Shown: positions 4,030 to 15,600, numbered from the stretch's first letter. The stretch is 64,000 nucleotides of DNA from an uncultured Bdellovibrionales bacterium (GCA_964436855.1 CAYTED010000006.1:19681-83680); one strand, 5' to 3'. Notes: generated by a model not told the origin, from the letters alone. Numbers and translations: made by a program.

Positions 4030-4200
4030 AAAAGAGACAAGAAGCTGTCTTAAATGGTAAAATGATACAAGGGTCGTCCCATGTCTCATTTGTCTCGTTT
4101 TATCCTCAAAACCGCGACCCGAGAGCCTCAATTCACTCGTCGGCCAAGACCTCCAAGAAATCCCTCAACGGCTTGATTTCTCAAAGTTCTAGACCGATGA
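4030..4200. repeat. conserved recombinase 3'-flank repeat, copy 1 (candidate att/recombination site with multiple TGTCTCA/TGAGACA subsites)
   Basis: About 93% identical over ~143 bp to 13719-13860. Contains five 7-8-bp TGTCTCA/TGAGACA motifs in direct and inverted orientation and a GGGTCG..CGACCC stem. Abuts the recombinase stop codon. Confidence 0.7.
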
Positions 4201-5706
4201 CGCCCGCCAAAATTCGGAATCAGAAGAAACGGACAAAGCGGGGTCGCGCCGAAGGCGCGACACTAATGCATTCCCCCCGCCGAATCCAGAATCCAAAAGG
4301 GTTTTCCACGCTCCGCGTGGCTCAAAAAGTACGGTTCGATCCTTAATTTGAAAGTTCGAACCGACTTTTTTGAACAAATGAAGATTTTCTTCATTTGTTC
4401 CCTCGTTTGTCAATTCCATACTGGATTTTATGAATCTATCAGCAAGTTCGAACCGATTATGAGATTTTTTCTCAAAAGATGATAATTTCTCTTTGAGAAG
4501 CTGTTTTTGACACATCAGCTTGTTTTTAGAATCACGATATTCGTCTAGCGAAAGTGCGTTCTCTAGGTAAGCACTCATCAGCTTCTCAATTTTGGAATCC
4601 AAAAGAGAAATTTCATCTTTTGTTTTTTGAGAAAAAATCTCACTCGATTGGACTTCTGATTGCCGATCTTTCTCGTTTTCGGCAATCATCCAGTTTGCCC
4701 AATCGAGTGGCAAAGAAACTTTTTGTACTTCCGTTCTGATTTGAGAAGTTATGATTTCCTCGCGAACATATTTTTGTTCACAAGGATTTTTCCGTTTAGT
4801 ACAGCGGAGATAGTTATGACCTTTCTGTGTTTCGGTAGTAATGAAGTAACCACATTCTCCGCAACGGAAAAATCCTCTGTATAGATAATATTTCAAACCT
4901 TTTCCCTTCGGCTTACTTTTCCTCATCATCACTTCTTGAACGGAATCAAAAAGTTTCTTTGTGATAATCGGTTCATGCTTACCCTCAAAAATCTCTCCGT
5001 TATATCGCATTAGTCCTGTGTAGATAGGATTTTTGAGGATTTGCTGATAGTTCGACACCGCAAGTTCCTTTCCGCTTTTTCGCCTCAATCCAAGTCCGTT
5101 AAATTTATCTCGGATTTGATGCAAAGTGAACGACCCTGTTGCGTATGCCTCAAATGTTTTTTTGATAAGCGGAGCTATCTCTTTGTCGGGAACAATGCCT
5201 TGTCCTTTTACATTCACATATCCAAGTGGAGACATTTGAGGCCATATACCTTCTTTCACTTTGTTGCGATGACCTCGTTTGATATTTTCCGACAAATTGT
5301 CCACATAATACTTAGATTGCGAAAAAGCGATTGAAAGCATGAATTTGCCTTGCGGTGTCGGATCACACCAGAAAGTTGGAAATTTTAGCTCGGCAATCTT
5401 TCCCGTATCGAGCAAATAGATAATTTTTCCACCATCAACAGAATTTCTCGCTAATCTGTCGGGATGCCAAGCTAAAATTCCATTTGCTTCACCTTGCTCG
5501 ATACGGAGAAGCATTTCATTAAATACTGGCCGACCTGGGACTTTGGCGGTTTGTTTTTCTACGAAAATATCAACAACCTCGATTTGCTCTTTCAACGCGA
5601 GTTCTTTGAGTTCAGCCAGTTGATCTGAAATACTTCTCACTTGCCGATCTTCGGTGTCGGTTGATTTCCTTGTGTAGATGAAAAACTTTCTGGTGTGATT
5701 ATTCAT
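4189..5706 (-). CDS. large serine recombinase (resolvase/integrase family)
   Basis: N-terminal resolvase catalytic motif (FIYTRKSTDTEDRQVRSISDQ, catalytic Ser), recombinase domain and C-terminal zinc ribbon (CGECGYF...CTKRK), 505 aa. Confidence 0.9.
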   Translation of the reverse strand: MNNHTRKFFIYTRKSTDTEDRQVRSISDQLAELKELALKEQIEVVDIFVEKQTAKVPGRPVFNEMLLRIEQGEANGILAWHPDRLARNSVDGGKIIYLLDTGKIAELKFPTFWCDPTPQGKFMLSIAFSQSKYYVDNLSENIKRGHRNKVKEGIWPQMSPLGYVNVKGQGIVPDKEIAPLIKKTFEAYATGSFTLHQIRDKFNGLGLRRKSGKELAVSNYQQILKNPIYTGLMRYNGEIFEGKHEPIITKKLFDSVQEVMMRKSKPKGKGLKYYLYRGFFRCGECGYFITTETQKGHNYLRCTKRKNPCEQKYVREEIITSQIRTEVQKVSLPLDWANWMIAENEKDRQSEVQSSEIFSQKTKDEISLLDSKIEKLMSAYLENALSLDEYRDSKNKLMCQKQLLKEKLSSFEKKSHNRFELADRFIKSSMELTNEGTNEENLHLFKKVGSNFQIKDRTVLFEPRGAWKTLLDSGFGGGNALVSRLRRDPALSVSSDSEFWRASSV

Positions 5707-5929
5707 AGAATTGTATTGGCAAACGAGGAGCCACGCGGAGCGTGGCGAATCCTTGCAGAATCAGGATTTTGTGGGGGGAATACAGAGCAGACGGCGCCTC
5801 GCGCCGACCGCATTTTTGCTTCGGAATCCGATTTCCAATTTTGGCGGTGTTTGTTGGACAAAGTTCGAATGTATTTCGAGCAGAATCCCGAAGACTAATC
5901 GCGCCTCGTCCGCTCCCTTCGGTCGCGGT

Positions 5930-6025
5930 ACAAAACCAAAAATTTTCCTTCCTTTCTTCTGATTTTCGGCGGGGGGTGTGGGGGGAGCCGACAAAAAATG
6001 GAAAGGAAATTTTTGGTTTTGGTTC
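5930..6025. promoter_or_regulatory. stem-loop presenting a G6TGTG6 motif (copy 1)
   Basis: A 25-bp inverted repeat (acaaaaccaaaaattttccttcctttc / gaaaggaaatttttggttttggttc) flanks cggcGGGGGGTGTGGGGGGagccg. The same G-rich core recurs at 15242-15280. Confidence 0.5.
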
Positions 6026-6074
6026 CGACGCTTCATAAAAATACTGTTTTGCACACTTGTGTTATAACTTAACA

Positions 6075-6104
6075 TTGAGCCAAAACACAATAGCGTGATA
6101 TAAT
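6075..6104 (+). promoter_or_regulatory. sigma70-like promoter upstream of the ydeI-xre-broN operon
   Basis: TTGAGC, 18-bp spacer, TATAAT, ending ~30 bp upstream of the ATG at 6133. The palindrome ACACTTGTGT lies just upstream. Confidence 0.45.
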
Positions 6105-6132
6105 AATCAGTGTTGATAAGTTTTCATAGAAT

Positions 6133-6432
6133 ATGGCGAAACAAGTAACACAAAAAATACCGCATACTTTACCTAAGGACATGCGAGACGTACTCACCAC
6201 TCACTCCGATGTTAAAGCAAAGTGGGATACTCTCACTTCACTTGCTCAAAATGAGTGGATTTGTTGGGTGACTATTGTGAAGAAAAAAGAAACTCGGAAT
6301 GAGCATCTTGCTCGGTTTGTTCAGGATTTACAAAAAGGAAAAAGAAGACCATGTTGTTGGCCAGGATGTCCGCATCGCAGACCAAGTGCACAAAAGTGGT
6401 TTAGTAGCAAAACAAGGTTAGTAAATAAATAA
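6133..6432 (+). CDS. YdeI/OmpD-associated (OmdA) family protein
   Basis: 99 aa with AKKPETR-like core (VKKKETRNEHLARFVQDLQKGKRRPCCWPGCPHR) typical of the YdeI/OmdA family. Assignment is from memory. Confidence 0.5.
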   Translation: MAKQVTQKIPHTLPKDMRDVLTTHSDVKAKWDTLTSLAQNEWICWVTIVKKKETRNEHLARFVQDLQKGKRRPCCWPGCPHRRPSAQKWFSSKTRLVNK

Positions 6433-6433
6433 T

Positions 6434-6643
6434 ATGGCAAAAACCACAGCACAAAAATTTGGCGAAAATATGAAAAAGATTCGGCTCGAAAAAGGTATGT
6501 CGCAAGGCGACATTTGCCGAGAGTTAGGATTAGATCGAGCATATATTAGCAATGTCGAGAACGGCAAACAAAATCTTACAATTAGCACAATGGAAAAGGT
6601 CGCCACAGTGCTTGGGGTTAGCGTAGATCAACTTTTAAAATAA
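6434..6643 (+). CDS. XRE-family helix-turn-helix transcriptional regulator
   Basis: 69 aa with HTH_3 pattern (GMSQGDICRELGLDRAYISNVENGKQNLTISTMEKVATVLGVSVDQLL). Starts 1 nt after the upstream gene. Confidence 0.85.
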   Translation: MAKTTAQKFGENMKKIRLEKGMSQGDICRELGLDRAYISNVENGKQNLTISTMEKVATVLGVSVDQLLK

Positions 6644-6645
6644 CT

Positions 6646-7500
6646 ATGACGACACAAAATCAAACCATTACCAAAATCGCTATTTTTCAGAAAAAGGAAG
6701 TTCGCAAGATTCTCTATAAAAATGAGTGGTGGTTTTCTGTAATTGATGTTATTGAGGTTTTAACAGATACAGCACGCCCACGAAAATATTGGAGCGACCT
6801 CAAGAAGAAACTAATAAAAGAGGGTTATTCTGAAGTGTCCGAAAATATCGGACAGTTGAAAATGACCTCTCCTGACGGCAAAAAGCGAGAAACTGACTGC
6901 GCGAATACCGAAACAATTTTTCGCATTATCCAAGCTATACCATCACCAAAAGCAGAGCCGTTCAAGCGTTGGTTGGCGCGGGTTGGTTATGAGCGAATTG
7001 AAGAAATAGAAAATCCGGAACTTGCCACAAAACGCACGCGTGCGTTATACAGGGCAAAAGGATATTCAGATGCTTGGATTGAAAAACGAATGCGTGGTAT
7101 TGAAGTACGCGAGACACTTACGGACGAATGGAAAAAACGTGGAGTAAAAGAAGGGCAGGAATATGCAATTCTCACAGCGGAAATCTCAAGAGCAACATTT
7201 GGTATGACACCGAGTCAATACCAAAAACTCAAAGGTTTGAAGCGGGAAAATTTGCGCGACCACATGAATGACCTCGAGCTTATTTTTACAATGCTCGGCG
7301 AAGCCTCAACTACCGAAATCGCTCGCAACAAAAACACCCAAGGATTTTTGGAAAATAAAATTGCTGCGAAAGAAGGAGGAGATATAGCTGGTGAAGCACG
7401 CCGAAAACTTGAAATAAAGAGTGGTAAAAAAGTTTCTACTGGTGAAAATTATTTACCAGAGCCAAAGTCGAATCGCAAGTTAAAGCCAAAAAATACATGA
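6646..7500 (+). CDS. Bro-N domain protein (DinD/phage antirepressor-like)
   Basis: N-terminal Bro-N pattern (ITKIAIFQKKEVRKILYKNEWWFSVIDVIEVL...KYWSDLKKKL), 284 aa. Typical cargo of phages and integrative elements. Confidence 0.8.
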   Translation: MTTQNQTITKIAIFQKKEVRKILYKNEWWFSVIDVIEVLTDTARPRKYWSDLKKKLIKEGYSEVSENIGQLKMTSPDGKKRETDCANTETIFRIIQAIPSPKAEPFKRWLARVGYERIEEIENPELATKRTRALYRAKGYSDAWIEKRMRGIEVRETLTDEWKKRGVKEGQEYAILTAEISRATFGMTPSQYQKLKGLKRENLRDHMNDLELIFTMLGEASTTEIARNKNTQGFLENKIAAKEGGDIAGEARRKLEIKSGKKVSTGENYLPEPKSNRKLKPKNT

Positions 7501-7964
7501 AACTGACATTCGATGAAAACTTGATAGCGGACTACACCAGTGCTTCTCAAAAGGTCAGAGTTTTAAGCGAGAATTTGGTCTTAAAGGAAATATATTGCCC
7601 TAATTGCGGTGAGTCTATTTTTGAATATCAAAACAATAAACCCGTTGCCGATTTTTACTGCTCAAAATGTTCAGAGGATTTCGAACTCAAGTCAAAGCAA
7701 GGAAAATTTGGCAAAAAAGTTTCCGCTGGCGCATATTCCAAAATGATAGAAAGAATCAATTCTGCACAAAAGCCGAATTTCTTCTTCATGGGATATCTGC
7801 TAGAACTTTTGAATGTTAATGACTTCTTTGTTGTTCCAAAACATTTCTTTGTATCTGAAATTATCGAAAAGCGAAAACCATTATCCGAAACTGCTCGTCG
7901 AGCGGGTTGGGTCGGTTCAAATATTCTCTTTTCAAAAATACCGAAGGCAGGGCAAATCTTTTGA
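7497..7964 (+). CDS. DpnI-like (Dam-replacing family, type IIM methyl-directed) restriction endonuclease catalytic domain, lacking the C-terminal winged-helix domain
   Basis: Strong resemblance to the DpnI N-terminal region: YCPNCG...NKPVADFYCSKCSEDFELKSKQG, PNFFFMGY, RKPLSETARRAGWVGSNI (recalled from memory). The ORF stops after ..SKIPKAGQIF; DpnI continues for ~80 aa more. Overlaps the bro-N stop by 4 nt. Confidence 0.6.
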   Translation: MKLTFDENLIADYTSASQKVRVLSENLVLKEIYCPNCGESIFEYQNNKPVADFYCSKCSEDFELKSKQGKFGKKVSAGAYSKMIERINSAQKPNFFFMGYLLELLNVNDFFVVPKHFFVSEIIEKRKPLSETARRAGWVGSNILFSKIPKAGQIF

Positions 7965-8019
7965 TGAAAGCCTGAAGCAACTTGGTAAAGTCCTTGGATT
8001 TGAGGCTTCAAGACCTGAA

Positions 8020-8421
8020 ATGAATGGGGATGGAACTTTAGACGTATGCTGGGAAGATGAGGAAAGGAAAGTTGTTATAGGGTTTGAAAATAAAATTGAA
8101 AAGACTAATAAGATTCTATCTAAACAAGAAATAGACCAGTGTTCTGGACACGGAAACTGGCTCTCACAAAACTACCCTGACTATGAGCGCATCATGTTTG
8201 TTGTTGGTCGAATTGATGGCTATAACGAATTAGCGTCTCCTCTTGATCTAAATATTTTGGAAGTAACAGAAATTGAGAGAGTGTCAGGTGAGATTAAACA
8301 GGTACATGGGAAAAAGGTTTACCCTGAGCAAGTGGACGCATCTCTTGACTCTCAAAAACTAAGGGCTAGTAGTATCTTTCCTCAAGTTAAAGTTTCGTCT
8401 TTACCGAAGATAAAGTGCTGA
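8020..8421 (+). CDS. hypothetical protein (possible replacement C-terminal module for the DpnI-like nuclease; start uncertain)
   Basis: The ORF at 7813-8421 overlaps the DpnI-like gene in another frame; the first in-frame ATG after that gene's stop is at 8020 (MNGDGTLDVCWEDEERK...). No recognisable motif. Confidence 0.35.
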   Translation: MNGDGTLDVCWEDEERKVVIGFENKIEKTNKILSKQEIDQCSGHGNWLSQNYPDYERIMFVVGRIDGYNELASPLDLNILEVTEIERVSGEIKQVHGKKVYPEQVDASLDSQKLRASSIFPQVKVSSLPKIKC

Positions 8422-8431
8422 TTTCAAGTTC

Positions 8432-9523
8432 GTGATTGAATACTATAAATATCTCAAAGGCCATTCCTACTACTCCAACCTCTACGACCGCATCACCATA
8501 GAGGAATGCCAGCGTTGGGAAAATAAGGAATATCCTAAATCGCTTAAGGAGACCGATGAGGAGGCAAAGCTTACAAAAGTAAAAGAAGAGTATTTTCATA
8601 AAGTGGTTATCCGGCTTGCCATATACTTTCTCACCGCTGACCGTGCTGCAAAAAAATCTGAAACCATTCAGGAATGGATGAAGCGAGACCAAGAAAAGGA
8701 TGAGCGAGTGGCTAATGCTGAAGAGCCGCGGGGTATCCGTTGTCTTGGTTGCAGTTCGCTTTTAACGAATTGCATTTCTCGAGATCTCATGGATAACCAC
8801 CAAGGACAAGAAGCGGTTCTTTTCATGTTCGAATGTGGAAAATGTCACAAACGCCGAGCCTTTTGGGAGAATGGCAAGGAGTGGGAGCATAAGCCGAAGT
8901 GCATACAGTGCCGATCGGAAGTGGTATCAGAGAATACAAGAGAAGGCGATATTATCACCACTCGATACTCCTGCTCTCATTGTGGCAATGTAGAGGTGGA
9001 CACTATGGATCTGAACAAGAAAGAAGAAGAGGTTGATCCTCACTTTGAGGCGAATCGAAAGAAATATTGTATTTCAGAACTAGAGGGCAAAGAGATCATT
9101 CGTGAATCTCAGGAGATGAAAGAGCTTGTCGATAGCTGGAGAGAAAGGGATGAAAAGAAAGAGTTATACGAAGACATAGCTAAGATCCAGAAACTAACCT
9201 TGGTTGAGCTCCAAACCCTTGTTACCCCGGTCATAGAGAAGGCGGGGTATACCAAGCTTGAGTTTGAGAAGCCTACCTTAGAGAAGGATGTGATCCTCGG
9301 ATTCAGTCTCCAAGATGCTCAATCTGGCCGAGTAGAGTACGATAGCGTCCATAATCTCCAGAAGCTCCTGAAAAAGACCCTTGAGCCAACAAATTGGCGC
9401 CTAATGAGCGAAGGGGTCAGTTATCGCCTTGGATTCCTCCAAGGGCGTTTAAAGGGTGTGGAAGGCGAGGAAAAGCTTAAGCAGCTTCTAGAAACAGAGA
9501 GAAAAAAGAAATCTAGAGAGTAG
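8432..9523 (+). CDS. hypothetical protein with two CxxC...CxxC zinc-ribbon-like modules
   Basis: 363 aa with CLGC, CGKC, CIQC and CSHC pairs in the central region and a charged coiled-coil-like C-terminus. Confidence 0.5.
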   Translation: MIEYYKYLKGHSYYSNLYDRITIEECQRWENKEYPKSLKETDEEAKLTKVKEEYFHKVVIRLAIYFLTADRAAKKSETIQEWMKRDQEKDERVANAEEPRGIRCLGCSSLLTNCISRDLMDNHQGQEAVLFMFECGKCHKRRAFWENGKEWEHKPKCIQCRSEVVSENTREGDIITTRYSCSHCGNVEVDTMDLNKKEEEVDPHFEANRKKYCISELEGKEIIRESQEMKELVDSWRERDEKKELYEDIAKIQKLTLVELQTLVTPVIEKAGYTKLEFEKPTLEKDVILGFSLQDAQSGRVEYDSVHNLQKLLKKTLEPTNWRLMSEGVSYRLGFLQGRLKGVEGEEKLKQLLETERKKKSRE

Positions 9524-9548
9524 AAAATAATCCGGTTTTGCGATTGAT

Positions 9549-10433
9549 ATGAATCCAGAAAACGTGTCGGTTACGTTTTCCATAGTTGTGGCAAATAACA
9601 CCCACAGAAATCATACTAAGTTTTCTGAAGAGTGGAATTTTTCTATTGATCGTTATACCTTCACTCGAATAAGCAAGGATGAAGTAAGAGTTTCCTTTAC
9701 TTTTGATGCTGTTCTAAAGAAATATGATGAGGATTATCGACTCGTTGATGAATGTCCCTCAGAGTATCTCCCCGAATATCAGGAATGCGAGGAAGAAATC
9801 GAAGTTATATTAGATTTACTGTCTCTGGAAGTTGGGGCGGGATTACAGATAAAAGAGGAAAGTTTTCTTTTTGCCTCAGCCACCTGTAGAAATAACGAGT
9901 TTAAGAATAGTCGCTTCATAGTGCCTTCAAAAACAAGGGATATCTATCCTCAATTTGAAATAGAAGATAATAGAAAGCTAGGGCTAGCTCTTCGTCTGTA
10001 TCGGCAGTCGGTGTCTACGAATGATCCTCGGGAACAAATGGTGAAGCTTTTTGCTGCTCTTGAACAACTATTTTCTAATGAAGGGAAGCGAATGTTGACC
10101 AAAGAAGAGATTGACCAGGTTAGAGGAGCTGTGGAGGCCTTGTCTCTTTCGCCAGAAAAAAAGAAGATTATCCTTGATAGAGTTTGTGACATCAGAAAAA
10201 GCTCGAAAACAATGATTGCGGAGAATCTTGAGTTAATGAGCGGTGACGAGCTGATTTCTGAAGAAGAGCGAAAGCAGCTGGTTGGGACTTGGAATAAATA
10301 TAGGTCAGTGATAGCGCATGGGGAGCTTATTTCAAGAAGAGACATGGATTTTGATTATGCTGTTTCTGAAATTGATACGATTGTCGAAGCAATCTTGAAA
10401 AGAAGCATAGAACACAGGATGCGAGAGTCTTAA
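9549..10433 (+). CDS. hypothetical protein
   Basis: 294-aa ORF with a plausible context (26 nt after the upstream stop); no recognisable domain. Confidence 0.45.
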   Translation: MNPENVSVTFSIVVANNTHRNHTKFSEEWNFSIDRYTFTRISKDEVRVSFTFDAVLKKYDEDYRLVDECPSEYLPEYQECEEEIEVILDLLSLEVGAGLQIKEESFLFASATCRNNEFKNSRFIVPSKTRDIYPQFEIEDNRKLGLALRLYRQSVSTNDPREQMVKLFAALEQLFSNEGKRMLTKEEIDQVRGAVEALSLSPEKKKIILDRVCDIRKSSKTMIAENLELMSGDELISEEERKQLVGTWNKYRSVIAHGELISRRDMDFDYAVSEIDTIVEAILKRSIEHRMRES

Positions 10434-10458
10434 GTGGCTTGTGATGGAGAAATAAAAA

Positions 10459-10486
10459 TCACCCGGAAGCACAAGCTTCCGGGTGA
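10459..10486. terminator. bidirectional rho-independent-type hairpin between convergent genes
   Basis: tcacccggaagc-acaa-gcttccgggtga perfect 12-bp stem, between the + gene ending at 10433 and the - gene ending at 10501. A TGTCTCA motif follows. Confidence 0.55.
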
Positions 10487-10500
10487 AAAGTTGTCTCATC

Positions 10501-12525
10501 TCACTTCTTCGAATACCTCGAGTAATACGCGCAGACCTCGGTGTTCGGGTCACCAACCGGAGTGCTCCCGTCCTGTTTGAGGCAGGCCCGGATAGTATGC
10601 CACTGGAGCTTCCAAGCGCTGCTCGAGGGAATCGGCCAGCCGTTACCTTCCATATAGTCCTCGTCGGTGCCGCCGGGAGGCAGTTCCGAGGGATGGATGA
10701 CGCCGTAGCCGATGTTCCACCATGCTCCGCCCGTCGCTACCGGACTCGAGATATGGTAGAGGACGGTGACATCGGTGGCGGGAGCGACCGGACCGTCGTT
10801 TCGCACCCAGATATCGGGCTTGATACGGCTTCCCGTGTTGGTGGTACAGCAGCCGACCTCATCCTGGAACTTGGTGATGACAAGCTTGGGCGCCGGTCTC
10901 GGTTGAAGAACGAAGGAGAGGCTCGTGCAGTTGTTCGTCTCGTCCGATTCGGATACCGCTCCTTGGTAGTCGGCACAGAAGTACGCCGTGCAGGCACCGG
11001 TAACGTTCGGGAGAGTGACAGACCCGATGTTTTCCTCGAACGCGGATGCACCAGCGGAAAGCGTGCTCGCCATGGTTCCGTCATCGGCCAGATAGATGAG
11101 ACTGGTACCGGGGCACTGGACGCTGTAGCTGCTGCGGATATCCGCTGGAGAACCGATATTGCCTTGGTTGGTTACCCAAGCGCCGAACCGAGCCTGATCC
11201 CCTGCATAGTACGGAGCCTGCCGGAACTGGAGGCCGCTTGTCACGAAATCGACGAAGCGCGGATCCTGGTTCTCGATCGGATTGGCCGTCACCTCGAAGA
11301 CCGCTTCGGTACTGCAGTTGTTGCTTTCGTGTTTTTCCTGATGGTCACCTCCGTTGTTGTGATCGTCCCGGGGATGATCGATGCAGTAGACGATGTTGTA
11401 GATGCCCGGTTCCGTGATCCACTGACTGATGACCGTGTTTTTGGTCTCGGTATGGGTGTCACCCGGCTTCAGGTTATCGCACTGCGTCGTCGTACTGTCG
11501 ATCCTCTGCCATGCTCCGTCTCCGCTGTGAACATCCTCCTTGTACCCCTTGGAGAGGTAGAAGTGGCCGGTGATGGTACTGATCTCGCCGCTGACACACT
11601 GGCCGTCGCCGATATTCTCGGACTGGGCTTTGGTATCGAAGGACTCGTTCAGGCCGAACTTGTATATCTCATCGCCCCACGGAGTGACGAGCCAAGTCTT
11701 CCGGACGATGAAGTCGGGAAGATTCGGATTCGGAGCGTCGGCCGCTTCGGTAAGATAACCGGCGCCGGCACCATGCACCGCGAGCGTCGCGTTGCCAGCC
11801 ACTACCGTTCCCGTATAGACATTGATGGTATTGACCGTACCGAACGACTGTATTTCAGCGGCACTCGCTACCTTTCCGAAGAAATTGACGATCGCACGCC
11901 ACCATTTCCGCCACCCATGATCCTCGGGGATTCTTTCCTGGGGATTGGGAGCGCTCGTGATGTAGGTCAGGTTGGATTGCAACTCACCACATACACTTGC
12001 ACCTTCTATCTGGGCATACGGTGGGTTGACGATACGATACCAAGACGTCGCCGTCTCGCAGGAAGCTGTCTTCGGCTCCCAGCAGATGTCGCCCTGACAC
12101 ATAGTCTGCGCTTCAGTTGAGGGATTGTAGGCGTAGTGGGTTTGGATGAAGGCAATTGGGTCAATGAAAGTATTAGTACACTGACTGTTTCCATCGCAAG
12201 GATTGGTCCAGAATGAATTATTCATTCTTCCCCAGCCCTTACCACCACCAGTTGGTGGAATACTATCCCCAATACACGCCGAAATGCAGGTGAGCACCAT
12301 TGGCACTGCCATTCCATATGCCGGTTTTCCCAATTGGTTTTCCGGCATAGACATCGTTACCGGCCGGAAGGGTTCCGCTTGAAAGATGGCCGTATAGCGC
12401 GGTAAACACCTGCCCATCATGCGTCTTATGCTTGATGAACAAAGCACAGTTTCCAGGACCCCATGAGGCATCATCGCAATGGCGTTTGTAGATCGTGCCG
12501 TCCGCAATAGCGTAGACTTTGGCAT
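10501..12525 (-). CDS. large secreted Cys/Trp/Gly/Asn-rich protein domain; N-terminal part of this ORF overlaps the M23 peptidase gene in another frame
   Basis: 674-aa ORF in GC-rich DNA with >30 Cys and many Trp and no recognisable domain. Its first ~85 codons overlap the 12263-12745 ORF, so the true product probably begins at the frameshift point near 12262. Confidence 0.5.
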   Translation of the reverse strand: MPKSTLLRTARSTNAIAMMPHGVLETVLCSSSIRRMMGRCLPRYTAIFQAEPFRPVTMSMPENQLGKPAYGMAVPMVLTCISACIGDSIPPTGGGKGWGRMNNSFWTNPCDGNSQCTNTFIDPIAFIQTHYAYNPSTEAQTMCQGDICWEPKTASCETATSWYRIVNPPYAQIEGASVCGELQSNLTYITSAPNPQERIPEDHGWRKWWRAIVNFFGKVASAAEIQSFGTVNTINVYTGTVVAGNATLAVHGAGAGYLTEAADAPNPNLPDFIVRKTWLVTPWGDEIYKFGLNESFDTKAQSENIGDGQCVSGEISTITGHFYLSKGYKEDVHSGDGAWQRIDSTTTQCDNLKPGDTHTETKNTVISQWITEPGIYNIVYCIDHPRDDHNNGGDHQEKHESNNCSTEAVFEVTANPIENQDPRFVDFVTSGLQFRQAPYYAGDQARFGAWVTNQGNIGSPADIRSSYSVQCPGTSLIYLADDGTMASTLSAGASAFEENIGSVTLPNVTGACTAYFCADYQGAVSESDETNNCTSLSFVLQPRPAPKLVITKFQDEVGCCTTNTGSRIKPDIWVRNDGPVAPATDVTVLYHISSPVATGGAWWNIGYGVIHPSELPPGGTDEDYMEGNGWPIPSSSAWKLQWHTIRACLKQDGSTPVGDPNTEVCAYYSRYSKK

Positions 12526-12745
12526 CCAGGCTACGAGTCATCATATCGGTGCCAATATGGTAAACCCCATCAGGTTCATAGCATCCATCACTGAAACGAT
12601 CCCGACCAAGCCATGTCCCACATTGCTGATCGAAACCTGCTGTGCCGATCGGGTAGAAAAACCCAGTTTCCATTTGATCAAGCGCGTAGGTTGCATTCGC
12701 GAACATGCACAAGATCATGAGGATGAATCTCATCACTGCTTTCAT
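12263..12745 (-). CDS. secreted M23 (LytM-type) metallopeptidase domain protein
   Basis: Signal peptide MKAVMRFILMILCMFANATYA; M23 motifs HIGTDM (HxxxD) and ...GAHLHFGVYWG (HxH). Terminates 3 codons after the HxH motif at a GGGG tract. Confidence 0.75.
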   Translation of the reverse strand: MKAVMRFILMILCMFANATYALDQMETGFFYPIGTAGFDQQCGTWLGRDRFSDGCYEPDGVYHIGTDMMTRSLDAKVYAIADGTIYKRHCDDASWGPGNCALFIKHKTHDGQVFTALYGHLSSGTLPAGNDVYAGKPIGKTGIWNGSANGAHLHFGVYWG

Positions 12746-12857
12746 GCTTCTCTCCTTGTCGGTGAGTTTGGTTGTGAACGAACTACAGATGTAGCGATGG
12801 AAATATCATCCTACAAAATTCTCGCATCAGACTCGATACGAGAATTATTGCAAGACA

Positions 12858-13511
12858 CTATTCAAGAAACTTGAACGTTTTTGTCATACCAAGAAAAATG
12901 GTGTGCTCATCTACGTGTATATTATTGTTTGGGTCATAATATAGTTGAAAACTAATAGTCCAAGCTTTATCGCTATTAAAGAAATATACACTTTTTTCAC
13001 CGAGTACTATCGCTTTTGTGTTATCGACGGATAGTGATGATAAGTTTTCACCGTAACCAGATTTTCTTTTCTGTAAAAACTCCCTGATAGGCATCGCTTT
13101 TTTATTAAATCGATCAGACGACATCACAAGGATAGCCGCACCCGATTCGCCACCTTCTGAGATAGGATAAGTTGTTCCTTCTTTTCCAAAATACAGATAC
13201 TCTCCTTTTATTTCACTATCTTTGTAAGTATTTACGAGCTTCCAGTTTTTAGGAATCTTCATTTCAAATCCCGCCTCTTCGTTTCGATACGTTTGCCAAT
13301 CAGAGGTATCAATGGGAGCGAAAACATACTCTCCATCAATAAGATCCTTTACACTTTCGATCTCATCATCCTTTGCTGATTGTCGTTCGATTTTTTCCGC
13401 TATTTTCTCTGATTGAGACACATTTTTTATCTTCCACCAAAGAATTCCTGTCCCAGTAAGAACGAGTGCAATGAAAACTACAATAGCTATTTTTTTATGA
13501 TTCATAATCAT
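12858..13511 (-). CDS. membrane-anchored hypothetical protein
   Basis: 217 aa with an N-terminal TM (IAIVVFIALVLTGTGILWW) and no recognisable domain. Confidence 0.45.
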   Translation of the reverse strand: MIMNHKKIAIVVFIALVLTGTGILWWKIKNVSQSEKIAEKIERQSAKDDEIESVKDLIDGEYVFAPIDTSDWQTYRNEEAGFEMKIPKNWKLVNTYKDSEIKGEYLYFGKEGTTYPISEGGESGAAILVMSSDRFNKKAMPIREFLQKRKSGYGENLSSLSVDNTKAIVLGEKSVYFFNSDKAWTISFQLYYDPNNNIHVDEHTIFLGMTKTFKFLE

Positions 13512-13689
13512 TCGCTAAAGCCTATCGGATTACTCTACATGATTCTTCATATCAGAAATATAAAGAAAAGATAAAATATTTATAAAATCGCCAATCATGC
13601 TTAGTCTAGCGACTGACTGTATAAAATCATGGAATAACCCTTTTGTCAAAGCCAAAAGCGAATAGAAAACTAGTTGGTATTTCGGTGTC

Positions 13690-13860
13690 GTATGAGACAT
13701 ATAACTGTCTCAGTATGCTAAAATGAGACAAGGGTCGTCTCGTGTCTCATTTGTCTCATTTTATCCCTGAAACCGCGACCCGAGAGCCTCAATTCACTCG
13801 TCGGTCAAGACTTCCAAGAAATCCCTCAACAGCTTGATTTCTCAAAGTTCTAGACCGATG
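13690..13860. repeat. conserved recombinase 3'-flank repeat, copy 2
   Basis: See copy 1. Includes the perfect 12-bp inverted repeat aaaatgagacaa/ttgtctcatttt around gggtcgtctcgtgtctcat and five TGAGACA/TGTCTCA motifs. Confidence 0.7.
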
Positions 13861-14164
13861 TAGCCCGCAGATAGGAACAAGGCAGGTTTTCGGAAACGCC
13901 AAGGAAGGGGCTCTTGGCTTGAACGCGCAATACTTTGTCCGTCAGTGTGAGGTTCGAACTGATGGCACGCATGATCTGCTTCTTGCATCGACTGTCACCG
14001 GTCTCGTAGCGAAAGAGGGCTTGTTTGCGGAACGAATCGAGTGTGTTCTCGAATTCGAACCGATCCGGACGATCTTCTAAGAGTTCTGAAATTTGAGATT
14101 CAATAGACATAATCTGTCTATCCTCACTCTCGGTAGATTTTCTGGTGTAGATAAAGTATTTCAT
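13850..14164 (-). pseudogene. serine recombinase remnant (internally deleted: N-terminal ~35 aa joined to C-terminal ~65 aa)
   Basis: MKYFIYTRKSTESEDRQIMSIESQ matches the catalytic N-terminus of the 4189-5706 recombinase. The C-terminal part (RFEFEN...LRATSV) matches that recombinase's C-terminus (RFELAD...WRASSV). Only 104 aa. Confidence 0.7.
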
Positions 14165-14195
14165 AAAGATTTAGAAAAGCCCGCTTCTGGCCTTA

Positions 14196-14260
14196 CTGAA
14201 TTCAAAACGGCTTGAATTTTCGGCGAAAAACGGCTGGCGAGCCCGCGTAGCGGGCGAGCC
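14196..14260. repeat. 65-bp inverted repeat, left copy (IR-L), abutting the XRE start codon
   Basis: ctgaattcaaaacggcttgaattttcggcgaaaaacggctggcgagcccgcgtagcgggcgagcc is the reverse complement of 15345-15409 with one mismatch. Contains the inner hairpin GCCCGC-GTA-GCGGGC. Confidence 0.8.
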
Positions 14261-14467
14261 ATGGCAACTGAAAACAACATTGGCGAAAATATAAAGAAAC
14301 ACCGCACAAGATTAGGGCTTTCGCAAGAAAATTTTGCCCAAAAGTCTGGTGTGAAGTATACGACTCTTACAAAGATTGAAAGCGGGGTTATTCAAAAGCC
14401 ATCTGTCGTTTTGGTGGCAAAAATTGCTAAAGTCCTCGGTGTTTCTATTGAGGATTTATTGAAATAA
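14261..14467 (+). CDS. XRE-family helix-turn-helix transcriptional regulator (paralog of 6434-6643)
   Basis: 68 aa with HTH_3 pattern (LGLSQENFAQKSGVKYTTLTKIESGVIQKPSVVLVAKIAKVLGVSIEDLLK). Confidence 0.85.
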   Translation: MATENNIGENIKKHRTRLGLSQENFAQKSGVKYTTLTKIESGVIQKPSVVLVAKIAKVLGVSIEDLLK

Positions 14468-14468
14468 T

Positions 14469-15185
14469 ATGGAAGAAAAAGAACAACCTAAAAATTTAGA
14501 ATATCGGGATTACATTGAAGGCACGCGTAAAGTGCTTGAACAAAGCAAGACTGAAACAGGACCATATGAAGTAACTGTTTCGGGGAAAAAATTTATTGTT
14601 TTTCCAAATGTTTTTTCTCCGAAATACTTTAACGATACGGAATTATTTGCAGACAACTTTCCGGTCCAAGATGGAGAGGAGATGTTAGAAATAGGTCCTG
14701 GAACGGGTGCCATTTCGATTCTCGCTATTTATAAAGGTGCTGGAAAAGTTTTGGCGATAGATATAAATCCCGATGCAGTAAAAAACACACAGGCCAATAT
14801 CAAACTTCACAATTTGCAAGAAAAGGTTGAAGTTCGGCAAGGTAACTTATATGAGTCCCTTAAATCCGATGAGAAATTTGATACGATATTTTGGAACACG
14901 CCGTTTGGATTTATTGAAGACGAGGATGTGCCAGACCTAGAAAAAGCGGTCTATGATCCTGCATACAAATCAACCGAGAAGTTTATCAGAGAGGCAAAAC
15001 AGCACTTGAAAAAAGGAGGGCGAGTTTTGGTAGGTTTCAGTACGACTTTGGGTAGATTGGATTTGCTTCAAAAATTTGCCGAAGAAGCAGGATTATCTCT
15101 ACGTCTAATTTATGAGGTAGAATCAAAGGAGACACATCCTGTTAAGTTCGAAATTTTTGAAGCCTTACCGATTGAGTCAGAATGA
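14469..15185 (+). CDS. class I SAM-dependent methyltransferase (small-domain/HemK-RsmC-like; substrate unknown)
   Basis: SAM-binding motif I LEIGPGTGAISI, an acidic residue after beta2 (AIDIN) and an NPPY-like motif IV as NTPFGF. Starts 1 nt after xre. Confidence 0.75.
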   Translation: MEEKEQPKNLEYRDYIEGTRKVLEQSKTETGPYEVTVSGKKFIVFPNVFSPKYFNDTELFADNFPVQDGEEMLEIGPGTGAISILAIYKGAGKVLAIDINPDAVKNTQANIKLHNLQEKVEVRQGNLYESLKSDEKFDTIFWNTPFGFIEDEDVPDLEKAVYDPAYKSTEKFIREAKQHLKKGGRVLVGFSTTLGRLDLLQKFAEEAGLSLRLIYEVESKETHPVKFEIFEALPIESE

Positions 15186-15241
15186 AAATTTGCCGCCAAA
15201 GAAAAACTTGAAATCGTCCTTTCCGCTCCGGTTCAAGGCGA

Positions 15242-15280
15242 GGCGGGCGGAAGGGGGGTGTGGGGGGAATTCCGCCCGCC
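15242..15280. promoter_or_regulatory. stem-loop presenting a G6TGTG6 motif (copy 2)
   Basis: Perfect inverted repeat ggcgggcgg / ccgcccgcc flanking aaGGGGGGTGTGGGGGGaatt. Confidence 0.5.
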
Positions 15281-15344
15281 GAGCCCAGAGAGTTCCGTTC
15301 GGATATTTTCAAACAGACACCGCCAGTTAGGAAATGAAGTCATT

Positions 15345-15409
15345 GGCTCGCCCGCTACGCGGGCTCGCCAGCCGTTTTTCGCCGAAAATTCAAGCCTTTT
15401 TGAATTCAG
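15345..15409. repeat. 65-bp inverted repeat, right copy (IR-R)
   Basis: Reverse complement of 14196-14260 with 1 mismatch. Confidence 0.8.
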
Positions 15410-15463
15410 CATAAAGTTCGAGCCGACATTTTTAAGAAATGCGCGGATTTGCGTTTTGTCGCC

Positions 15464-15600
15464 CTACGACAAAAGAATTTTGGCTTGGCTACTCAATAAA
15501 ATCACTTCTCGCATCGGTTCGAGCCAATTATTTCCTTTTTGTTCAAAAGCCGATAATTTCTCTTTGAGAATGGGTGCTCTTTTCGTGCCTTGAGAAAAAG
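15464..15600 (-). pseudogene. third serine recombinase fragment (C-terminal end only)
   Basis: Minus-strand translation LKEKLSAFEQKGNNWLEPMREVILLSSQAKILLS* is homologous to LKEKLSSFEKKSHNRFELADRFIKSSMELTN of the intact recombinase. The DNA shares gataatttctctttgagaa with 4484-4502. Truncated by the alkD-like gene. Confidence 0.5.

Follow-up and report, generated by a model that had tools for sequence, protein, structure and literature searches.

Between positions 4030 and 15600 of the window (the whole stretch of 64,000 nucleotides analysed here, from an uncultured Bdellovibrionales bacterium), an intact gene for a large serine recombinase (LSR) and pieces of related genes lie on the minus strand, and two copies of a conserved non-coding flank, copy 1 (c1) and copy 2 (c2), stand beside them. 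The locus raises the question of whether the flank belongs to the recombinase, as a site on which the enzyme acts, or is DNA of another kind that the recombinase has met. The earlier note on this stretch chose the former, arguing that a flank better conserved than its gene implies a cis-acting site with several recombinase-binding subsites. The comparison with related loci leads to a different answer: the flank is rather likely to be the DNA to which an LSR element became joined, a separate, dispersed module acting as a docking point, and not an array of accessory sites.

The recombinase element and its boundary

The intact open reading frame (ORF) of 505 amino acids, LSR1, contains the Resolvase (PF00239), Recombinase (PF07508) and Zn_ribbon_recom (PF13408) domains, all above cut-offs, and is a large serine recombinase by these three domains in order. 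The catalytic serine motif (Y-x-R-x-S...) is present as FIYTRKSTDTEDRQ at residues 9-22, within the Resolvase match (residues 9-154), and catalysis is predicted. More than 7000 homologues at 80-89% identity occur in genomes of the Candidate Phyla Radiation (CPR; Minisyncoccia and related groups) and in metagenomes; homologous proteins have lengths of 482-647 amino acids.

The gene is bracketed by two inverted repeats of 120 bp (Table 1), the right one (IR-R) inside the 3' end of the ORF and the left one (IR-L) ahead of the start codon. Both have the outward end ...TTTTGGCGG/, where the slash here and below marks the junction point. The repeats of the homologous locus L001 (4860-4979 and 6384-6503) are a perfect pair, each 100% identical to IR-R of the window. 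Outside IR-L lies a spacer whose first codons encode, in frame with the repeat, a conserved C-terminal tail, and for this reason the join of repeat and spacer can be read as an intact phage-type attachment site, attP (P/P'), traversed by the LSR reading frame. The P arm would then be the 120-bp module ending ...GGCGG/ and the P' arm the spacer starting /TGTGTATTG. In 11 loci the frame for the tail is open; the codon differences number 108 synonymous and 187 non-synonymous. The tail, C[VL]LDEVRMYFExNPxD followed by a stop, is 15-17 codons long and is encoded across the attP junction at 5848-5898(+) in the window, 4859-4806(-) in L001 and 14452-14500(+) in the contig L011. Most islands also keep in their spacers a long hairpin with A/T-rich arms of 28 nt and a G-run loop (GGGGGGTGTGGGGGG), situated between the attP junction and the promoter region of a helix-turn-helix (HTH) gene (window 5931-6021; L001 4672-4768 and 2882-2978).

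The end of the element was located by comparison with ten homologous LSR loci taken from CPR genomes and metagenomes. A sharp breakpoint at ...GGCGG/ is found in 10 loci, and the homology of the window with L001-L003 and other loci ends exactly at 4204, at ...TTTTGGCGG/. In five loci (L002, L003, L014, L016 and L018) the element adjoins, past the junction, a tRNA-Ser gene at its 3' end, and the last six bases of that gene, CCGCCA, come from the element. The flank, searched with an nhmmer profile, occurs in none of seven canonical island loci. The same partners are seen in the proteins, where the reading frame runs through the junction. Tails of the type ..RDSNPR.., a read-through of the tRNA T-arm, terminate about 68-75 of the 120 best homologous LSR proteins, and the conserved tail terminates 14-16 of them. 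LSR1 runs into the flank and ends ...FWR/ASSV; such a flank-type tail occurs in 0 of the 120.

The far side of the element is also preserved in L001 and L002, where, beyond the cargo, a second, inverted copy of the spacer meets the 3' end displaced from the tRNA, together with the tRNA terminator. These joins are, as judged from their sequences, the reciprocal B/P' junctions. A natural B arm on the flank side is found in the contig L011. Every P and B arm has GCGG as its last bases ahead of the junction, and the crossover would therefore lie within that core. No tRNA or transfer-messenger RNA (tmRNA) gene adjoins the copy of the element in the window; the tRNA end is restored in the homologues but not here.

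Two other arrangements occur among the homologues. LSR C-tails of one more recurrent class (AMWVQYQSGETP, CTRVWYPWVQPL and the like), found in L015 (5449-5560) and in the proteins P0008, P0018, P0102, P0109 and P0110, indicate a different junction partner, neither tRNA nor flank. The LSR of L020 has attP-type (repeat/spacer) junctions on both sides (6643-6981 and 8381-8560), with no tRNA adjoining.

The flank and its junction with the element

The conservation of the flank between the two window copies, reported earlier, is confirmed by a repeat finder (4054-4207 and 13715-13868, 92% identical), and by alignment and BLAST the repeat extends to 4034-4207 and 13694-13868 at about 89% identity. 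Outside the window, pattern scans of genome and metagenome collections, giving four loci each, detect the flank at 85-97% identity in at least eight contigs. Its conservation drops sharply at both sides, the neighbouring protein genes being only about 73-77% identical as DNA. In L004 and L008 the flank lies directly 3' of a co-directional gene, for an ABC permease and an AbiEii-like protein, respectively. The L006 copy is syntenic with the ATPase-cupredoxin side of the window and has a hairpin and T6 after GCCCGC, and the L007 copy is in synteny with the region left of c2. L010 carries a flank with a 5' part unlike the other copies, and L011 has two flanks, L011a and the diverged L011b. No intact LSR stands beside the flank in L004, L006, L007, L008, L010 or L011. 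Because the gene contexts of the copies are mutually unrelated, the flank is a dispersed, self-contained module.

In four copies out of nine the element DNA joins the flank at a single fixed point, GCGG/GCGTC, which reads GCGG/GCGTCATCGG on the minus strand. The complete element is joined to c1; in L005 a 17-nt scar follows the flank and matches the outer end of the inverted repeat exactly; and c2 and L011a are joined to a remnant of the P' arm, namely its first ~110 nt including the hairpin and GGTGGCTTGAAACTGCCTCGT, which the canonical L003 and L020 spacers also have. Four flank ends, in L004, L006, L007 and L010, are free of the element. The check proposed earlier, a search of related genomes for the flank beside serine recombinases and for empty versions, gives the L005 scar and the empty ends, and the canonical LSR loci lack the flank. 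One edge of the flank is indeed a recombination junction, as had been supposed. However, the flank as a whole lies beyond the element boundary, is missing from homologous LSR loci and is present elsewhere without an LSR, and homologous loci essentially show it to be something other than a cis site of the recombinase. Nor does the argument from conservation carry over, as the two LSR copies that had been compared belong to different lineages and the flank is a separate conserved module.

The flank end at the junction reads CACTTCTGCGG/GCGTCATCGGTCTAGAAC. Just inside the junction, GCGTCATCGGTCTAGAAC can be compared with AGAGGGAGGGATTCGAAC of the tRNA-Ser targets: 7 of 10 positions of the T-loop part match, at equal spacing. 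This likeness to a tRNA half-site is suggestive only. In L006 (6830-6870) the flank motif GAGGCTCTCGGGTC recurs as an incomplete second copy between two terminator-like hairpins, about 100 nt upstream, in the minus-strand sense, of the complete flank.

These observations can be combined in the following scheme. The region would be filled by nested, partly decayed copies of a CPR-wide, LSR-driven integrative island. The island attP would consist of the 3' end of the LSR gene (P arm, ...GGCGG/) and the spacer (P' arm, /TGTGTATTG). Its usual chromosomal partner is the 3' end of tRNA-Ser, the island supplying CCGCCA. In the window the partner appears to be, in place of a tRNA, the end of the dispersed, highly conserved 175-bp non-coding flank, which has the same GCGG core at its boundary and a T-loop-like GGTCTAGAAC at the distance of the tRNA T-loop. 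The joins of element and flank were presumably catalysed by the LSR. In the preferred reading the flank would be a conserved locus in its own right, perhaps of a small-RNA type, and its end would serve as a secondary bacterial attachment site (attB). This reading is favoured because the flank is missing from canonical islands, because L004, L006, L007 and L010 are free of an LSR, and because no flank-type tail occurs among the 120 best homologues.

The best surviving alternative, possible although rather unlikely, is that the flank is borne by the island. In a sub-lineage the flank would follow the C-tail and hairpin as a continuation of the P' arm, replacing the long-hairpin module of canonical spacers and standing upstream of co-directional cargo (the genes for a 217-amino-acid protein, an M23 peptidase and a CARDB protein). 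The solo flanks would then be relics, c1 the copy of the target and c2 the island's own, the two forming direct repeats around one island of 9.7 kb (4204-13938) with the P/B' junction at 4203/4204 and the B/P' junction at 13938/13939. Such a geometry resembles that of L001, which has the order B/spacer, cargo, reverse-complemented spacer/reverse-complemented inverted repeat, LSR, inverted repeat/B'. The first ~110 nt of the c2 and L011a joins match the canonical L003 and L020 spacers, which also agrees with it, as does the dispersal of the flank in unrelated contexts, twice per genome and sometimes by cargo-like genes such as the AbiEii-like gene of L008. However, the seven canonical island loci have no flank, no P'-arm sequence adjoins the flank in L004, L006, L007 and L010, and flank read-through is absent from the 120 best LSR homologues. 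In addition, L005, L006 and L007 all keep the order of 217-amino-acid protein or M23 peptidase block and then flank, without an LSR.

Several observations weigh against the flank as an independent docking site. The c2 and L011a copies, in diverged genomes, share an ancient join consisting of the C-tail, the hairpin, GAAACTGCCT.GT... and CTGCGG/flank, and this join favours the island-borne reading. There is no conserved left-hand neighbour at c1, and element 1, the element of LSR1, has no recognisable distal B/P' junction of the canonical type. The match between flank and tRNA half-site (7/10 plus the core) is weak and was found post hoc. The strong conservation over ~110 bp of the flank core is left without explanation. 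Finally, the stems of the flank hairpins, taken below as terminators, are A/U-rich, and the c1 hairpin gets no terminator call.

In a second alternative, improbable on present evidence, the flank would be a structured RNA tied to the recombinase (a 3' untranslated region, a regulatory or a guide-like RNA) made from the minus strand together with the LSR mRNA. The consensus fold is more stable on the minus strand (-30.7 kcal/mol) than on the plus strand (-16.9 kcal/mol), nearly all variable helix positions of the minus-strand fold remain paired by G-U changes, and on that strand the core is followed by hairpins and a U tract. However, covariation is non-significant on both strands, being reached by 75/500 and 179/500 shuffles, and a structured RNA is not established by it; the single-sequence z-score of the minus-strand flank is only -1.46. 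Rfam gives no match at the gathering score or at E<=1-10 for both flank copies, the inverted-repeat modules and the L006 copy. The RNA would adjoin an LSR in just one of nine copies, and the plus strand has signals of its own: an extended -10 box, TGnTAAAAT, conserved with n alone varying, and in L006 a canonical terminator 3' of GCCCGC.

Other identities of the flank were tried and rejected. No tRNA or tmRNA gene is detected in it, and it does not align to tRNA-Ser above shuffled controls. A plus-strand frame is open in several copies, but its substitutions show no synonymous bias, and the translated frame has no match among 5.8 billion proteins. Viral contigs contain no homologues of the flank and only distant LSRs.

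The earlier note had counted five copies of TGTCTCA or its complement in the flank DNA. Five exact copies are present in c2, together with the perfect 12-bp inverted repeat described there (13720-13731 and 13751-13762), but c1 has one exact copy and four with one mismatch. Likewise, the clustering exceeds chance in c2, where 0 of 20000 shuffles reach five, but not over the whole window, which has 9 copies against 5.8 expected. The copy mentioned there at 10491 is at 10492; it is rejected as a related subsite, since the 7-mer is at chance frequency and an ordinary terminator hairpin of convergent genes stands beside it. The 7-mers form the arms of two A/T-flanked stem-loops situated 110-170 bp away from the crossover point, and this region is missing from the diverged copies L010 and L011b. 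A terminator is called at the c2 hairpin (13723-13743+) and at an L006 hairpin with 13 pairs (6585-6616+). To judge from these structures, the hairpins are most likely bidirectional intrinsic terminators that insulate the module from neighbouring genes. Although the flank directly adjoins two LSR remnants, its 7-mers are strongly clustered in c2 and one of its edges is a recombination junction, it is very improbable that it is a res-like or att accessory region with the 7-mers as recombinase-binding subsites, since large serine recombinases generally use short, simple att sites with no accessory subsites, homologous LSR elements lack the flank, which occurs elsewhere without an LSR, and the 7-mers are distant from the crossover, degenerate in c1, absent from two copies and at chance frequency in the window.

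The C-rich core of the flank has a repeat of its own, CTC(C)AA, occurring five times (window 4105, 4127, 4151, 4164 and 4180), a number reached by 0 of 20000 shuffles; read on the minus strand as UUGAGG it is Shine-Dalgarno-like. To the left of c2, 115 nt (13579-13693) are 91% identical to L005 2655-2770, and the protein genes farther left are not alignable as DNA. The conserved non-coding unit of the window/L005 sub-group may extend to ~290 nt.

Two cassette orientations and comparison with known systems

In L018 the LSR cassette is reversed between tRNA-Ser and spacer relative to L001-L003. The two repeats of L018 (3200-3319 and 4721-4840) are only 68% identical, and the reversal is therefore not an assembly artefact. 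Judged by this comparison across metagenomes, and by the 14-16 of 120 proteins with the conserved tail, the LSR cassette occurs in nature in both orientations. The end of the enzyme differs with the orientation, being the conserved tail in one and a tail read from tRNA or flank in the other. The two states would arise either by inversion or by alternative integration.

A more speculative scheme, put forward tentatively, is that of a self-sensing recombinase cassette within CPR-wide defence islands. The ORF would span attP, and a spare inverted 3' end (P arm and 17-residue tail) would precede its start. The switch between a full-length enzyme and one with a junk tail taken from tRNA or flank would be made by integration, or by the 1.6-kb cassette inverting between the 120-bp repeats, and would control directionality or activity; the flank would be an undescribed CPR locus of small-RNA type that mimics the end of tRNA-Ser as a secondary dock. 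The reading frame across attP and the two cassette orientations point to a possible new mechanism by which a serine integrase senses the state it is in.

By analogy, the region is an LSR integrative island of a known kind, nearest to elements of the staphylococcal cassette chromosome (SCC) type and the Tn4451 type, and in its choice of target nearest to tRNA-targeting islands. The LSR elements available for comparison are SCCmec, inserted by CcrAB at the 3' end of rlmH, Tn4451 with TnpX, Tn5397 with TndX, and the phages phiC31 and Bxb1 with their integrases. They share with the present island a three-domain enzyme, site-specific insertion at a short common core (here GCGG), precise junctions with no long target duplication, and cargo islands in tandem or decayed hotspot arrays, as in SCC composites. 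Unlike in these elements, attP here overlaps the 3' coding end of the recombinase, inverted 120-bp copies of the P arm bracket the gene, the integrated element has within it an intact attP in inverted orientation, insertion is usually at the 3' end of tRNA-Ser, and the hosts are CPR. The unusual features are the attP within the recombinase ORF, the inverted spare attP and the cassette in two states. No description of LSR islands in CPR or Patescibacteria was found in the literature.

Islands that target tRNA genes, typically by means of tyrosine integrases, are alike in their insertion at the tRNA 3' end, the restoration of that end (here by CCGCCA) and their defence or resistance cargo. The present island differs from them in using a serine recombinase and in replacing only 6 nt of the tRNA, and its partner in the window is not a tRNA. 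The invertible segments of Hin, Gin and Cin also have inverted modules around a segment bearing the recombinase and occur in nature in both orientations, as L018 and L001-L003 do; however, the enzyme here is an LSR and not a small invertase, the repeats of 120 bp are partly coding, and a flip would exchange the C-terminus of the recombinase itself. In integration-dependent immunity of mycobacteriophages a reading frame likewise spans attP, and the proteins of the integrated and excised states differ in their C-termini, but attP lies there in the repressor gene and here in the gene of the recombinase, a serine enzyme. The res sites of Tn3 and gamma-delta resemble the flank in having clustered short repeats of mixed orientation beside a serine recombinase gene. 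The protein that binds a res site is a small resolvase with a C-terminal HTH, and the site is located on the promoter side of the resolvase gene and always accompanies it; none of this applies here. The analogy fails on its defining points because the enzyme is an LSR and because the array is missing from homologous LSR loci and present without an LSR.

A conserved flank beside recombinase relics can thus be a shared target or module rather than an array of binding sites. The junctions are defined at base level for a family of LSR islands that has thousands of near-identical members in CPR, hosts with few known mobile elements or genetic tools, and the family carries restriction-modification, toxin and metal-resistance genes. 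A defined attP and attB, with the ends of tRNA-Ser and of the flank as targets, could yield an integration tool for CPR or their hosts.

Decayed copies and cargo

The description of the region from 4030 to 15600 as a recombination hotspot, with serial and decayed insertions of related LSR elements, is supported by the LSR pieces listed in Table 1, and the divergence of the recombinase N-termini is as quoted in the earlier note. The pieces themselves require correction. The supposed internally deleted recombinase at 13850-14164 is LSR in its first ~30 codons (14075-14161), but the remainder is other DNA reading into the flank (tblastn). The C-terminal fragment placed at 15464-15600 is actually larger, 15299-15571(-), with an in-frame stop, and it is followed not by the flank, as every piece was said to be, but by a short inverted-repeat module and spacer. 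It is cut off at a DNA-alkylation-repair gene. Two copies of the LSR 3' end, at 5728-5898(+) and 14196-14261(+), had been overlooked. The segment 13865-13938 has homologues in the L011a junction and in the canonical L003 and L020 spacers.

Table 1. Positions of the flank copies, recombinase elements and cargo in the window
Feature	Positions	Strand	Description and evidence
Flank c1	4034-4207		Conserved 175-bp module: hairpin region 4034-4100, core 4100-4203, shared CCGC 4204-4207
LSR1, intact	4189-5706	-	Pfam domains; more than 7000 homologues
IR-R (P arm)	4204-4323	-	120 bp, final ~40 codons of the LSR ORF; inverted repeat with 5728-5847
IR-L	5728-5847	+	P-arm copy, inverted, directly upstream of the LSR start codon; repeat comparison, BLAST
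Spacer (P' arm)	5848-6035	+	Conserved C-tail codons CLLDKVRMYFEQNPED and stop (5848-5898); long hairpin (5931-6021)
Element 1 cargo	6133-10433	+	OmdA-like, HTH_3 regulator (6434-6643), Bro-N, DpnI-like, unknowns, MauJ-like; Pfam
Flank c2	13694-13868		Five exact 7-mers in two hairpins (13693-13712, 13720-13762)
P'-arm remnant	13865-13938	-	Decayed C-tail, hairpin GCCAAG...CTTGGC, linker; joined to c2 at CTGCGG/GC
LSR2 remnant	14075-14164	-	N-terminal ~30 codons, different lineage; tblastn 65% over 29 aa, E = 1e-6
Truncated short-type inverted-repeat module	14196-14261	+	IR-L of LSR2; 98% inverted repeat with 15344-15409
HTH_3 and methyltransferase cargo cassette	14261-15185	+	Pfam
Distal spacer (P' arm)	15186-15319	-	Joined to short inverted-repeat module; attP-type junction ...CTGGCGG/TGTCTG
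LSR3 3' fragment	15299-15571	-	Includes inverted-repeat module 15320-15409; in-frame stop; tblastn E = 3e-6

Along the plus strand the region begins with a cation-efflux gene, followed by c1, by IR-R, LSR1 (-) and IR-L, and by the spacer and cargo (+). The convergent CARDB, M23 peptidase and 217-amino-acid genes (-) come next, then c2, the P' remnant and flank-side sequence. The last part consists of the LSR2 stub (-) with its truncated short repeat, the HTH-methyltransferase cassette, the spacer/repeat junction with the LSR3 fragment (-), and the DNA-alkylation-repair gene.

The layout of the cargo, a divergent HTH_3 gene with variable genes, is common to all homologous loci. The variable genes there include DpnII and HaeIII restriction-modification systems, MvaI/BcnI, Fic, a nucleotidyltransferase and AAA ATPases; L003 carries copper-resistance genes instead. 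In the window they include Bro-N, DpnI-like and methyltransferase genes. The DpnI-like ORF (155 amino acids) spans profile positions 1-157 of 183 and overlaps the ORF at 7813-8421 in another frame (7497-8421); the overlap may represent a frameshift or a fusion. An ORF of 545 codons at 10483-12120(+) lies antisense to the 674-codon CARDB-domain gene at 10501-12525(-), where the DNA is locally GC-rich (0.51-0.57), and this plus-strand ORF is almost certainly spurious.

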